Below, piece by piece: positions 1 through 8,750 of a stretch of 64,000 bases of DNA. The notes under the pieces are model-generated. The model searched no databases. It saw nothing but the letters and a program-made list of their open reading frames with translations, and was not told the origin of the DNA. The translations under genes were made by a program, and so were the position numbers. Within the stretch, counting starts at the first letter, position 1, and each line of letters starts with the position of its first letter. Location: NCBI RefSeq assembly GCF_013315695.1, contig NZ_CP054353.1; one strand, written 5' to 3'. This DNA is from Escherichia coli (lineage in GTDB: Bacteria; Pseudomonadota; Gammaproteobacteria; Enterobacterales; Enterobacteriaceae).

Positions 1-11
1 GAATCCCCCCG

Positions 12-1067
12 TTAACCAATTTTGACGGTAACAAATTTGCGAATATCTGCCGGAACCGGCTGCGGTGCGCTGTGCGTCTGCACGTACTCAATCGCCGGAT
101 CGCCGTCCTCAATCCAGTTTTTCGGGTAAAACATGTTTTGCGTTGCGCCCGTTCTTACCGCTTCCTGTTCCAGGATCGCACCATAGGCCACCAGCCCTTT
201 ATTGTTGGTGTTGCCCAGGACCAGCAAATCAGGCTCAAGGAAATATTTTTCTGTGCCGTCGCTGTCAGTGTATTTGCCGGAATAGACGATAAGGGCCAGA
301 TCACCAAGATAGCCTTTAAAGCTCACCACTTCGCCCAGGTTTTTACATGCCAGCTCTGCGGCGGATTCTGAACCACGGGAGAGATCGTACAGTTCACGGA
401 ATTTTTTAAAGCTGCGTAACATGCGCCATACATCAACGCCCATAATCATGACGTTTGCGGGGCAACCTGCCTGATCTGCGTATAGCTCAATGTCATAGAT
501 TGGGTCGTGTATGTCTTTGTCCTGCTCTGACCATTTTTTACCGTCGGCCTGCTCTATGATGTTTTTTTCCGGTATCTTCCAGTCGATTTCATAGCGCTCT
601 ATGCCTTCGCCCTCAATGATGTTTTTTCCGGTCGTTACCGCATTTACCGCCAGCCATTCCACGCGCGCTTTAATGGCGTTTATCTGGCGGCGCATGTTGC
701 CAGTAATCAGGCGCATACGGCGGTAGGTAGGGTCGTTAAGCTGTGCTGGATCTTCTCCAGCCATGCGCATTATTGTTTTTAATGGATCGATTTCGTGTTT
801 TGGCTTCATGTAGCCAGGGCGAATAATGCTTGTTTCGTACCCTTTATCGCGCTGAACCTGGCTACCCACCATAGGCGAACAAAACGCCGACATAGTGACT
901 TCTTCAATATCCAGGTTATCTAACATGATGTCCTGTGTGTTGAATGTCGCCACGTTCGGGAAAAACAGCGCGGTAAACAGCGGACTGAATTTAAATTCCG
1001 CAATATCCTCGCGATTCAGGTACGCAAAAAGCTGGTTAGTGTTAAGTGCTATTGCTTTTACTGTCAT
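12..1067 (-). CDS. Major capsid protein, lambda gpE-like family
   Basis: A 351-aa ORF whose length and sequence character fit the phage major capsid protein E family. Its start overlaps the stop of the upstream small ORF, and it lies in a separately promoted operon. Confidence 0.75.
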   Translation of the reverse strand: MTVKAIALNTNQLFAYLNREDIAEFKFSPLFTALFFPNVATFNTQDIMLDNLDIEEVTMSAFCSPMVGSQVQRDKGYETSIIRPGYMKPKHEIDPLKTIMRMAGEDPAQLNDPTYRRMRLITGNMRRQINAIKARVEWLAVNAVTTGKNIIEGEGIERYEIDWKIPEKNIIEQADGKKWSEQDKDIHDPIYDIELYADQAGCPANVMIMGVDVWRMLRSFKKFRELYDLSRGSESAAELACKNLGEVVSFKGYLGDLALIVYSGKYTDSDGTEKYFLEPDLLVLGNTNNKGLVAYGAILEQEAVRTGATQNMFYPKNWIEDGDPAIEYVQTHSAPQPVPADIRKFVTVKIG

Positions 1068-1273
1068 TATTCACCCCCGTGAACCTGATTCATACCCAGC
1101 GCCGCGCGTAAATAGGCGCGTACCTGCCAGCCTGTTGACGGCTCAACCATCGCCAGCGGATCAAGTCCTGCCGCAATGCCTGCTTTTACGTTCTGCTGGT
1201 GGCGTTCCTTGAGCGCCTTCACGATGTCGGGGCTTATGTACACCGAAACACCGCCTTTTTTCTCTTCAGCCAT
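1067..1273 (-). CDS. Hypothetical 68-aa protein, first gene of the capsid operon
   Basis: An ORF with an AGAGGA Shine-Dalgarno upstream, translationally coupled to the capsid gene. I recognise no family. Confidence 0.5.
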   Translation of the reverse strand: MAEEKKGGVSVYISPDIVKALKERHQQNVKAGIAAGLDPLAMVEPSTGWQVRAYLRAALGMNQVHGGE

Positions 1274-1302
1274 AGTAAGAAATTCCTCTTTGACTTAAAA
1301 AA

Positions 1303-1357
1303 TCATAACTGGATGTTCATCCAGTTATGATTATAATCATGATTGCATTTTGTGCAA
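1303..1357 (-). promoter_or_regulatory. Candidate late-operon promoter (-35 TTGCAC 1352-1357, 16-nt spacer, perfect -10 TATAAT 1330-1335) with a 28-bp palindromic operator (1303-1330)
   Basis: TCATAACTGGATG-tt-CATCCAGTTATGA has perfect 13-bp arms and lies immediately downstream of the -10, over the predicted start site. It overlaps the 14-bp palindrome ATGATTATAATCAT (1327-1340). Confidence 0.45.
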
Positions 1358-1437
1358 TGATATTGAGTTGCGTTGCAAATTATGAAATTATTATCCCGAT
1401 CATGTGTGTCAGTGCACCAAAAAACCTCATATGCAAA

Positions 1438-1476
1438 AGCCCGATAAGCCACCTCTGACCTTATCGGGCTTTTTTT
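1438..1476. terminator. Rho-independent terminator hairpin (bidirectional appearance)
   Basis: An 11-bp stem AGCCCGATAAG/CTTATCGGGCT with a T-run on the plus side and an A-run on the other side. Confidence 0.55.
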
Positions 1477-1482
1477 GGGCGC

Positions 1483-1506
1483 AAAAAAGCCGGATTGCTC
1501 CGGCTG
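1483..1506 (-). terminator. Rho-independent terminator after the PerC-like gene
   Basis: On the minus strand the stem AGCCGGA/TCCGGCT is followed by TTTTTT, about 20 nt after the stop at 1528. Confidence 0.6.
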
Positions 1507-1527
1507 TGTGGTGTGGTTCTGGTATTC

Positions 1528-6398: not shown

Positions 6399-6441
6399 TA
6401 GCGGCTATCATCCCCGTGCTTATGTTTAGTGTTTCCAAACT

Positions 6442-6469
6442 GGCGACCTCCCAAGGTCGCCTTTTTTTT
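6442..6469 (+). terminator. Rho-independent terminator
   Basis: The stem GGCGACC/GGTCGCC is followed by T8. Confidence 0.65.
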
Positions 6470-6488
6470 ATGTGCCATTGTCACCACC

Positions 6489-6698
6489 TCAAGCGGCCTT
6501 GCCTGAATTAATGCGTTCGCGGTTTTTGACCCACGCCACAACCTCAGACTTAACCCAGCCAACAGAACGACCGCCGAGACTGATACGGGAGGGGAAGCGG
6601 CCCTGCTTTTCCATCTCGTAACGAGTTGTGCGGCAAACGCCTGTTAGCTCTCTGCATTCTTTTTCGCGGATTACGCGATCTTCATTTATTTCACGCAT
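6489..6698 (-). CDS. alpA: AlpA-family (MerR-like HTH) prophage/satellite regulator, 69 aa
   Basis: MREINEDRVIREKECRELTGVCRTTRYEMEKQGRFP has the typical AlpA HTH. It lies next to the integrase on the same strand. Confidence 0.75.
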   Translation of the reverse strand: MREINEDRVIREKECRELTGVCRTTRYEMEKQGRFPSRISLGGRSVGWVKSEVVAWVKNRERINSGKAA

Positions 6699-7107
6699 AC
6701 AAAAACCTACATAAAAATTACGTATATAAACTTTTCTCTTAGCTGTAGATATATGAGATCGGATATTACTTAGATTCTTTTTCACCTCTTAAATTAAAAA
6801 CACAACCATGCTAAAGGCTTTGTTCGCTAAGGTTCGTAGAAGCTCGTTAGTGTTTAAAATCGTGTCACGAGTTTTTAAGCGACGCAACAAAAAATGTCGT
6901 TATTTGGCATGACACCTGAATTACCTCATTAAAAACAAATAGATAAACCATCAGGTGTTGGAACAATCAAGAAACAGAGAATAAGAACTAAGAAGAAGAC
7001 ATTTCAAATTTTTTCAATACTTGACACATATAAATCGTCGATATTTGCCGATATTCGACGATTTATTTTAGAGGGCCATTTTTCGCAAGAAAAACAGCCG
7101 TAATTTG

Positions 7108-8346
7108 TCAAGAATTTTGGGAGTAAATTCGCGGGGTCATAACAACGATTTTTTCATCATTGTTCTGGAGAAGCTCGAGACGCTCAACCCATAGATTAAG
7201 AGCGTCACGTTTTGCATCGAGATAACGGGAGTGATTATAGACTCGTTGCATTCCTGGCAACTGGTGCGCGGTTAGCTGCTCCACTACATGAGGATCCACG
7301 CCTAAATCGTTCAGCATCGTTGTAAACGTGTGCCGGATGTCGTGCAACGTCCAGGGGGCTTGATTAATGCGTCTGTGTGCCGTTCTTCCGTACTCTGATA
7401 CAGATGATTGCCCTTTCAGTTCTCCGAGTAATAAGCCCGTGTGTCGGTTCTGCTCCACCAGCTTCGTTACGAACGGCAAGATCGCTTCCGGTATTGGCCT
7501 GAATATTGCTACCTTCGTTTTGCTGTGTTCTTTCGGCACAGTCCAGAGCATTTCTTTAAAATCCCATTCCTGGACCTCAGAGCGTCTTAGCTCAGTGGTA
7601 CGGCATCCGAAGACAATCAGGAGGCGAATCAGGGCGCTGTAGTACGGTGTGTAAATTTTTTCATCCAGGGCGCGTAGTAATTCCCCAAGCTCCTTGTTTG
7701 TTAGTACGCGCTCGCTTATTTCTGCTTTTTTCCCAACATCACCTACAACCATATCATCTAGAACGTTGGTAATTGCGTAGCGTCGTTTGCGGCAGTACTT
7801 AAGCGCCTGCTTGCATACCTGTAACAAAAATCCTGCTGATACCGGATTACGCATAGCAAGCTGATCAAAACAGGTCAGCCAGTGGCGTAGCTCGCATTTT
7901 TCCAGCGGCATAGCACCAATATGGCTGATTATGTGTGTATTGATCCGGCTTTTCAGAGATTCGTAATCTGTGCGCTTTTCCTTCGCGTACGATTCAAGCC
8001 AGTAAGTGAGCGCTTCCTTAACCGTAACAGGTGATAACGCTTCCTGTACGGTGTGATTAAGCTCATGGCGTGGATTTTTACCCTCAGCAAGCCAGGCGCG
8101 ACACTGCGACGCTTTTTCCCTGGCTGCTTTCAGGCTCAAATCTGGATAATTTCCCAGCCTCAGACGTTCAGGGGCTACCTTCCTGCCTGTTCCGGCCCTG
8201 TAAGTGAAATACCAGGTTAACAGGCCATTGGTTGAATGCCTTACGCTAAGGTTGCCACCATCATTAAAAAAGGTGTTTTTTGTGGTTGGTGATCCGCTTA
8301 ATTTTCGTAAAAGAGTGTCGCTAAGTCTATGAATTGCCCTGCTCAT
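7108..8346 (-). CDS. int: P4-type tyrosine integrase
   Basis: A 412-aa ORF with the catalytic motifs LHDIRHTF and YNHSRY, plus an N-terminal DUF4102-like arm-binding region. Confidence 0.9.
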   Translation of the reverse strand: MSRAIHRLSDTLLRKLSGSPTTKNTFFNDGGNLSVRHSTNGLLTWYFTYRAGTGRKVAPERLRLGNYPDLSLKAAREKASQCRAWLAEGKNPRHELNHTVQEALSPVTVKEALTYWLESYAKEKRTDYESLKSRINTHIISHIGAMPLEKCELRHWLTCFDQLAMRNPVSAGFLLQVCKQALKYCRKRRYAITNVLDDMVVGDVGKKAEISERVLTNKELGELLRALDEKIYTPYYSALIRLLIVFGCRTTELRRSEVQEWDFKEMLWTVPKEHSKTKVAIFRPIPEAILPFVTKLVEQNRHTGLLLGELKGQSSVSEYGRTAHRRINQAPWTLHDIRHTFTTMLNDLGVDPHVVEQLTAHQLPGMQRVYNHSRYLDAKRDALNLWVERLELLQNNDEKIVVMTPRIYSQNS

Positions 8347-8374
8347 GTTTCGAATTTCCGGTCATCAAAATTAA

Positions 8375-8510
8375 CTACACCATTGACTACACCGAGCATC
8401 GTACAAGGGCGAACTGTGACGAACAAGGGCGAACAAGAAAAACGAAATTATCCTTTATAATCATAGAAATAAATGAGATACCTACACCATGACGAACACC
8501 CACGAACACT
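8375..8510. repeat. Short direct repeats beside int (ACTACACC x2, ACAAGGGCGAAC-like x3, CGAACAC x2): candidate arm-type integrase sites / att region
   Basis: Seen directly in the sequence between the int start and cspD upstream DNA. Confidence 0.4.
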
Positions 8511-8750
8511 AACTGATAAATAACTATCATCTATCGTTGGCATCAGCGACATCTGTCACATTCCTGTCAATAGCGTTAACTGCTTCAAATTTTTGATTCA
8601 TACCTGCCCCCTGGCCCCTGTCAAATGCTTGACGGCTCGCCCTAATTCTCTAAATTGTATTTCTAGAGTTGGCGAGGTTTTGAACAGCCCCCTCTCTGAC
8701 CCCGGTTTATTCCATCTTACTTGTATAAGATTTGCGAAGGATGTCGAAGC

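Follow-up and report, generated by a model that had tools for sequence, protein, structure and literature searches.

An island at the cspD-clpS site of Escherichia coli is very probably a classical cos-type phage-inducible chromosomal island with the capsid gene standard for the EcCICFT073 family

Does a chromosomal island that encodes its own phage-type major capsid protein also build its own capsids? This question is raised by the left end of a 64,000-nucleotide stretch of Escherichia coli DNA (contig NZ_CP054353.1 of the assembly GCF_013315695.1; the whole stretch is referred to below as the window), which carries an integrative element with a gene for a homologue of the lambda capsid protein gpE. 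An earlier note on this DNA, made from the sequence alone, had described the element as a candidate capsid-forming satellite with an unusual late-gene order. The analysis presented here leads to a different answer. With high confidence, the region can be assigned to the int-proximal three quarters (~8.5 of ~11.3 kb) of a classical cos-type Gram-negative phage-inducible chromosomal island (PICI) of the EcCICFT073 family, inserted at the 3' end of yljB between cspD and clpS. Because this family is well studied, and its capsid gene is both standard and experimentally dispensable, the region is not a new capsid-building satellite. Thus, the earlier interpretation holds as far as it describes a PICI-type satellite with a lambda-E-type capsid gene, but not in presenting that satellite as novel or capsid-forming.

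The segment from position 1 to position 8530 comprises int, alpA, small genes, the gene for a DUF927 primase-replicase, an iteron origin, ssb, perC, a 68-aa open reading frame (ORF) and a 351-aa lambda-gpE-type capsid gene, so that every element listed in the earlier note is confirmed. The main genes all lie on the minus strand, a one-directional layout that is interrupted by two plus-strand genes at 5952-6131 and 6189-6398. The markers typical of PICIs are found here, namely an integrase at one end, AlpA after int, a primase-replicase gene with an iteron origin, and a gene for capsid morphogenesis.

The island occupies the cspD/yljB-clpS site and, in agreement with the earlier placement, is located beside cspD (8751-8975), which is followed by macB and macA to the right. 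The alignment against the empty cspD-yljB-clpS site of strain K-12 breaks at the int-proximal attachment (att) core TGATAAATAACTATCAT (8514-8530, plus strand), which places the end of the island there rather than at position 8560, as previously assumed. This core shares bases with the stop codon of yljB, a gene of 24 codons for a small protein (8527-8601, minus strand), and includes ATGATAGTTAT, the published att sequence of the cspD-clpS PICIs EcCIIHE3034 and EcCI18098 (Table S1 in PMC6092414). Integration at the core regenerates the end of the yljB gene; no tRNA gene was found at the integration site. A second copy of the core lies 11,271 bp away, core to core, in the relative contig L006; this att-flanked length is within the ~10- to 15-kb range of PICIs, and the cspD-clpS attB is a catalogued PICI site. 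In E. coli MSB1_4I, the site is empty: this genome matches the window from exactly position 8514 onward, up to position 22006, with 2 mismatches in 13,493 bp (99.985% identity). The existence of a near-isogenic strain with an empty site indicates that the island is a discrete unit that has been recently gained or lost.

Another repeat, a 27-nt direct repeat with tandem ACTACACC motifs, is found ~120 to 150 bp inside both island ends (8368-8394, plus strand; the clpS-end copy is at 13713-13739 of L006). These repeats are probably the arm-type sites for the Arm-DNA-bind_3 domain of the integrase. The copy at 8368-8394 was also considered as the att site and was ruled out, since the alignment with the empty K-12 site puts the crossover at 8514-8530 and leaves the 27-mer internal.

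The window begins 11 bases past the stop codon of the capsid gene and, therefore, the operon continues beyond its left edge, as had been surmised. The left flank (~2.7 kb) was read from relatives that encode an identical capsid protein (the 8 contigs listed, of 23 read) and from the complete genomes N10 and CEA601S. The closest relatives include L006, which is collinear with the window and 99.85% identical to it over positions 1-11067, and L007, which is 100% identical over positions 1-5722. In the relatives, the capsid gene is followed by a gpD-like gene, a 137-aa ORF (orf137), lambda-type cos sites, an optional gene for a Nu1-like small terminase (terS) and a 93-aa ORF (orf93) and, past ~1 kb of non-coding DNA rich in repeats, by the second att core and clpS. 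Chromosomal genes are reached within ~3.4 kb of the capsid gene in all 8 relative contigs listed, and clpS is found ~2.9 to 3.1 kb beyond that gene in 7 of them (the eighth, L010, is at another chromosomal site), so the region is not the end of a full prophage, in line with the earlier reading. Genes for portal, protease, large terminase (TerL), HNH, head-tail connector or adaptor, tail and lysis proteins were detected neither in the window (Pfam and PHROG searches) nor in the complete, near-identical relatives, and the proposal of a capsid-forming satellite could not be sustained. The two findings that the earlier note had named as fatal to its claim were a full prophage upstream and a capsid ORF devoid of hidden Markov model support; no full prophage is present and the capsid ORF is well supported (see below), and the claim falls on other grounds.

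These grounds are provided by EcCICFT073 (region 1377930-1388654 of the CFT073 genome), the model E. coli PICI (Fillol-Salom 2018 ISME J, 2019 Mol Cell). The island and its relatives share with EcCICFT073 the entire order int-alpA-small genes-DUF4222-pri/rep-iteron ori-orf-ssb-perC-orf68-capsid (c1499)-decoration (c1500)-orf137-cos-orf93. From ssb onward, the gene lengths are equal as well (249 nt for perC, 207 for orf68, 1056 for the capsid gene, 336 for the decoration gene, 414 for orf137 and 282 for orf93), the encoded proteins are nearly the same (98.5% identity for SSB, 96.3% for PerC, 98.5% for the orf68 product and 94.9% for the capsid protein), and the DNA is 95.5% identical over window positions 1-2373. 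The cosN site is of the lambda type in EcCICFT073, just as in the relatives of this island. Accordingly, the order of the late genes that had been described as unusual is the perC-orf68-capsid-decoration-orf137 order of the archetype. The differences are concentrated elsewhere. The att site of EcCICFT073 is in the roxA-phoQ region rather than between cspD and clpS, the integrase and AlpA sequences are only 77% and 57% identical, respectively, and the 707-aa DUF927 replicase corresponds in EcCICFT073 to a 584-aa "DNA primase family" protein that aligns with it only at the N terminus (61% identity); these three genes are mosaic.

The cspD-clpS islands EcCIIHE3034 and EcCI18098 (Fillol-Salom 2018, Table S1) have the same attB, the same att core and the same late module, with reported sizes of 10.5 to 10.8 kb. 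EcCIIHE3034 shows the same architecture, with 92.5% identity of the integrase and 91.2% identity of the capsid protein, but differs in the type of primase, the absence of perC, an orf68 product that is only 69% identical, and the presence of a Nu1-like terS. A gpE-family capsid gene and an organization like that of EcCICFT073 are also found in HE-PICI 11capE, another Gram-negative PICI (PMC10111431).

The earlier assumption that classical PICIs have no capsid gene conflicts with the published record. In EcCICFT073, c1499 is a putative capsid protein and c1500 a head decoration protein (PMC6092414), 21 of the 29 reference Gram-negative PICIs have a capsid gene, which is not required for transfer (PMC10111431), and "capsid morphogenesis" is one of the five PICI core components of SatelliteFinder, typical of enterobacterial PICIs (PMC10085698). 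The feature that had been flagged as unusual is therefore the family norm. In the same scheme, portal, head-tail connector and adaptor are forbidden components that separate PICIs from capsid-forming PICIs (cf-PICIs) (PMC10085698). Deletion of c1499 or c1500 left both transfer and interference unchanged, an island with c1499::cat was transferred at 1e5 to 1e6 per ml, an island with c1501::tetA was transferred too, and all of the packaged EcCICFT073 DNA was phage-sized (PMC6092414).

The capsid protein of the window (351 aa; 12-1067, minus strand) is a full-length HK97-fold protein, recognized by PF03864 Phage_cap_E (E = 3e-49) and phrog_29 (E = 7e-107), as well as by its matches to PDB entry 3BQW (E = 6.6e-229) and the lambda capsid, 7VI9 (E = 8e-81). 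It is 43% identical to lambda gpE; the protein c1499 of EcCICFT073 is itself the protein in 3BQW (100% identity). The upstream gene, orf68 (1067-1273, minus strand), the first of the late unit, has a stop codon that overlaps the capsid start codon, so that the two genes are predicted to be translationally coupled. Its product belongs to phrog_3255 (E = 8e-37) and had no Pfam, NCBIfam or PDB match and no tblastn match in 50,697 phage records; a single-sequence AlphaFold2 model consists of two helices, with low confidence (pLDDT of 64.5). The best match to the capsid protein in the same phage collection is 47.6% identical, and a megablast search of the island against it returned no match. Taken together with the lack of phage homologues of orf68, these figures indicate that the late module is satellite-specific.

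The earlier suggestion of a separately promoted late operon fits the intergenic sequence. Two tandem terminator-like hairpins are located downstream of perC (1435-1505, minus strand, with one hairpin at 1488-1505 and a second stem at 1438-1470 followed by a T-run), and the sequence upstream of orf68 contains a candidate late promoter, TTGCAC-16-TATAAT (1330-1357, minus strand); these features fit a separate late transcription unit. The TATAAT box is overlapped by a perfect inverted repeat with 14-bp stems, AATCATAACTGGAT-GAAC-ATCCAGTTATGATT, followed by a T-run (1301-1332, minus strand; predicted RNA fold of -28.6 kcal/mol, z = -5.3), which lies ~30 nt upstream of orf68. This repeat may serve the late unit either as a leader terminator or as the operator of a dimeric regulator. 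A resemblance of the late-operon leader to a lambdoid Q-dependent late promoter is unsupported, as a sensitive blastn search against phages produced only chance-level matches.

In the relatives, the late unit continues with a 111-aa decoration protein of the lambda gpD type (PF02924, E = 1e-17; 37% identity to gpD) and the 137-aa product of orf137 (11417-11830 in L006, outside the window). Over 83 aa, the latter aligns (37% identity, E = 1e-11) with the C-terminal, Nu3-equivalent scaffold part of the gpC/Nu3 protein of PhiR12_2_star, whose capsid protein is the closest among the phages, and it also aligns with the C-terminal end of phrog_53, but has no BLASTP similarity to the gpC/Nu3 protein of lambda itself (E = 0.32). 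Two other assignments of orf137 were discarded: a gpFI-like protein (E = 0.43) and a "head-tail connector", the name used in one RefSeq record (the others list it as hypothetical), which is not supported by any profile match. None of the head-module proteins had a match in NCBIfam. The island appears to encode capsid, decoration and scaffold-like proteins, which is far short of a head-building set. The late unit (orf68 and the gpE-like, gpD-like and Nu3-like 137-aa genes) is accordingly best described as a conserved family module whose gene content predicts that it cannot build a capsid alone, and the literature suggests a role in modification or stabilization of hijacked capsids.

The genes of this module travel together, as indicated by their matching counts. 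The pair of orf68 and the capsid gene was detected at 632 places in 597 of the 5426 complete E. coli genomes, and the pair of the D-like gene and orf137 at 633 places in 596 of these genomes. Compared with the CFT073 alleles, the ratios of nonsynonymous to synonymous substitution rates (dN/dS) are as low as 0.14 for the capsid gene, 0.09 for the decoration gene and 0.23 for orf137, which shows that all three proteins are maintained by selection.

The packaging segment is the most variable part of the left flank. The cosN site GGGCGGCGACCT and ~38 nt of lambda-identical sequence are found in all relatives and are followed by divergence (cosB), as published, with the cosB flanks shuffled between the variants; no cos site was found in the part of the island inside the window. 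In EcCICFT073, where packaging relies on the helper TerS and the island cos sites and is redirected by RppA (c1503) (PMC6739421), rppA is located between two inverted cos sites. The closest relatives (L005 to L007) have retained only an rppA remnant at the terS/Rpp position, which is outside the window: two inverted lambda-type cos sites flank ~510 bp of AT-rich DNA that keeps only the last 22 codons of rppA. Other relatives (L008 to L012 and N10) have a Nu1-like terS (PF07471, E = 9e-23) after a single cos site. The variable cassette corresponds to positions 11893-12428 in L006, which were compared with 15559-16309 in L004 and 11893-12580 in L008. The cos/rppA/terS segment is evidently a hotspot of gene swapping, and the copy that belongs to the window may lack a gene for packaging redirection. 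The ~1-kb non-coding segment that separates orf93 from the att core on the clpS side (12700-13200 in L001) contains nested direct repeats with 51- to 60-nt units ~310 bp apart (80 to 98% identity), plus five copies of a 25-mer.

Helper-induced excision, replication, packaging and interference have been shown in the literature for EcCICFT073 only (PMC6092414, PMC6739421), and a similar life cycle can be proposed for this island by analogy with that archetype, including its induction, packaging route and type of helper. A lambdoid helper phage would trigger the expression of AlpA, which together with Int would release the island from the chromosome at the 17-bp att core. Replication from the iteron origin would then be carried out by the DUF927 primase-replicase (Pri-Rep) with SSB, and the helper terminase would cut the resulting concatemers at the lambda-type cosN sites just to the left of the window. 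Several island genomes per head would be packaged in helper-made, phage-sized capsids with helper tails, and the particles would be released by helper lysis.

How do other interpretations compare? In a capsid-forming or semi-capsid-forming satellite, the gpE-like, gpD-like and Nu3-like proteins would make the shell, and the helper would supply the portal, protease, terminase and tails. Such a satellite would account for the full-length capsid protein, the decoration and scaffold-like proteins at E values of 1e-17 and 1e-11, the consistent co-occurrence and purifying selection of the three genes, and a capsid clade with under 48% identity to every phage capsid in the collection. The cf-PICIs, represented by EcCIEDL933 (Alqurainy et al., bioRxiv 2022.09.08.507074), indeed share with this island the int-alpA-rep front end and the capsid protein. 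However, they encode a protease, portal, head-tail connectors, HNH, TerS and TerL and form small capsids without interfering with the helper; the protease, portal, connectors, HNH and TerL are missing in the complete relatives of this island, as is a head-tail adaptor, and its 11.3 kb falls short of the ~15.4 kb of the cf-PICI prototype. Moreover, the archetype, whose capsid protein is 95% identical, keeps its transfer without c1499 or c1500 and with c1501::tetA, and its packaged DNA is phage-sized. Capsid formation by this island is therefore very unlikely. A comparison can also be made with Ccm of SaPIbov5: like the protein described here, Ccm is a satellite-encoded full-length homologue of the helper capsid protein from a cos-packaged island, but Ccm redirects the capsid size and blocks the helper, whereas EcCICFT073 packages phage-sized DNA and deletion of its capsid homologue brings no relief of interference.

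A decaying lambdoid prophage that has retained int, the replication genes and a few head genes would agree with the prophage-like RefSeq-style annotation of the region, with the usual labelling of islands of this kind as defective prophages noted in the literature (PMC6092414) and with the lambda-like cosN region. Such decay is hard to reconcile with a compact architecture and gene sizes that are repeated in ~600 genomes and at several att sites, with two att copies in the complete relatives, with ORFs that are full-length within the window, and with purifying selection on the genes. In addition, there is no megablast similarity to the phage records, the gene order (E before D, and scaffold after D) is unlike that of lambda, the site in the near-isogenic MSB1_4I is cleanly empty, and islands with the same late module have been mobilized experimentally, which leaves this explanation with hardly any likelihood. 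A P4-like satellite with a P2-type helper would likewise combine int with an AlpA-like regulator and a large primase-helicase within 10 kb, and SatelliteFinder scores P4 as a "Type C PICI" (PMC10085698). That assignment is effectively refuted by the absence of homologues of Psu, Sid, Delta and Epsilon in Pfam and PHROG scans, the absence of the P4 CI RNA or any other Rfam match, cos sites of the lambda type rather than the P2/P4 type, and the lambda-type capsid and decoration genes.

The assignment to the EcCICFT073 family has to be weighed against several observations of its own. The ~2.7 kb of the left flank come from relatives that differ precisely there, with the rppA remnant in L005 to L007 and the Nu1-like terS in L008 to L012 and N10. 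Should the island be the variant with neither rpp nor terS, its packaging efficiency would be uncertain, and EcCIIHE3034, at the same site, was transferred poorly in the published tests. The island is known here from its genes, and its proposed life cycle is borrowed from EcCICFT073; since the replicase and the regulatory region differ from those of the archetype, induction and helper range may differ as well. Finally, the capsid, decoration and orf137 genes are under strong purifying selection and so must have a role, one that escaped the published assays.

The remaining genes of the island are described here from the int end. The tyrosine integrase (7108-8346, minus strand) combines the PF00589 Phage_integrase and PF13356 Arm-DNA-bind_3 domains. 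The AlpA-family regulator or excisionase (69 aa; 6489-6698, minus strand) was identified by PF05930 (E = 7e-16) and by gene calls in the relatives; the 98-aa AlpA ORF that reaches position 6785 is an upstream extension of this 69-aa gene. The two plus-strand genes encode a hypothetical protein, orf69 (6189-6398), called as a gene in L005 and L011, which had no family match in Pfam and PHROG scans and is followed by a bidirectional terminator-like hairpin (6442-6461), and a small YlcI/YnfO-family protein (5952-6131; phrog_949, E = 2e-19, and the RefSeq names of its homologues). Next come the 67-aa Icd-like protein (5555-5758, minus strand; phrog_6196, E = 6e-45), whose homologue is named "host cell division inhibitor Icd-like" in RefSeq, hypothetical orf106 (5242-5562, minus strand; phrog_15327, E = 8e-71) and a DUF4222 protein (4936-5235, minus strand; PF13973, E = 7e-17). 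A 335-aa ORF with a TTG start (5555-6562, minus strand) is almost certainly spurious, as it overlaps the two plus-strand genes and the Icd-like gene and spans the regulatory region. Positions ~5600-6385 form a mosaic stretch with no alignment to strain N10.

The 707-aa DUF927 Pri-Rep (2816-4939, minus strand) was identified by PF06048 (E = 5.5e-48) and phrog_1139, "DNA primase" (E = 1e-189). Directly 3' of its gene and before orf83, the replication origin (2475-2795) contains at least 12 iterons TGCGGGTTAY in both orientations, arranged in two sets; this layout fits the PICI origin shown in Fig. 2 of PMC6092414, which as published also has an AT-rich spacer. The conserved hypothetical gene orf83 (2194-2445, minus strand; phrog_1231, E = 6e-53) is called in L005 to L012. 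It is followed by the genes for the single-strand DNA-binding protein SSB (1787-2197, minus strand; PF00436, E = 4e-17, and phrog_44) and the 82-aa PerC-family regulator (1528-1776, minus strand; PF06069, E = 3e-35); perC genes have been described as common accessory genes of PICIs (PMC6092414, PMC11773190). None of the small ORFs had a defence-system match in PADLOC.

In the neighbouring chromosome, collinearity with K-12 and N10 ends just past aqpZ, in the region 16230-17600, which contains an ORF for an IS110-family transposase (16504-17529, minus strand). This transposase gene connects aqpZ with dusC, the 3-hydroxybenzoate/gentisate genes and the mgl/preTA region, located near 2.2 Mb in K-12. 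The aqpZ-dusC junction points to a large rearrangement associated with an insertion sequence; MSB1_4I shares this junction at 100% identity.

Published work already covers islands of this type, including their capsid and decoration genes, the attachment site and a crystal structure of the capsid homologue. The module is carried by ~11% of complete E. coli genomes and presents a puzzle: its capsid, decoration and scaffold-like genes are kept by selection, yet no phenotype of their deletion was seen with the helper systems tested. To this puzzle the present analysis adds one observation, the resemblance of orf137 to a Nu3-type scaffold domain. A more novel but very unlikely possibility is that with certain natural helpers the gpE-like, gpD-like and Nu3-like proteins assemble hybrid or replacement shells on helper portals. 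If so, hybrid shells could broaden the helper range or evade capsid-targeting defences, a role that would have been missed in the assays with lambda, phi80 and the CFT073 prophage, and islands of this family would represent an evolutionary intermediate between capsid-stealing PICIs and cf-PICIs.

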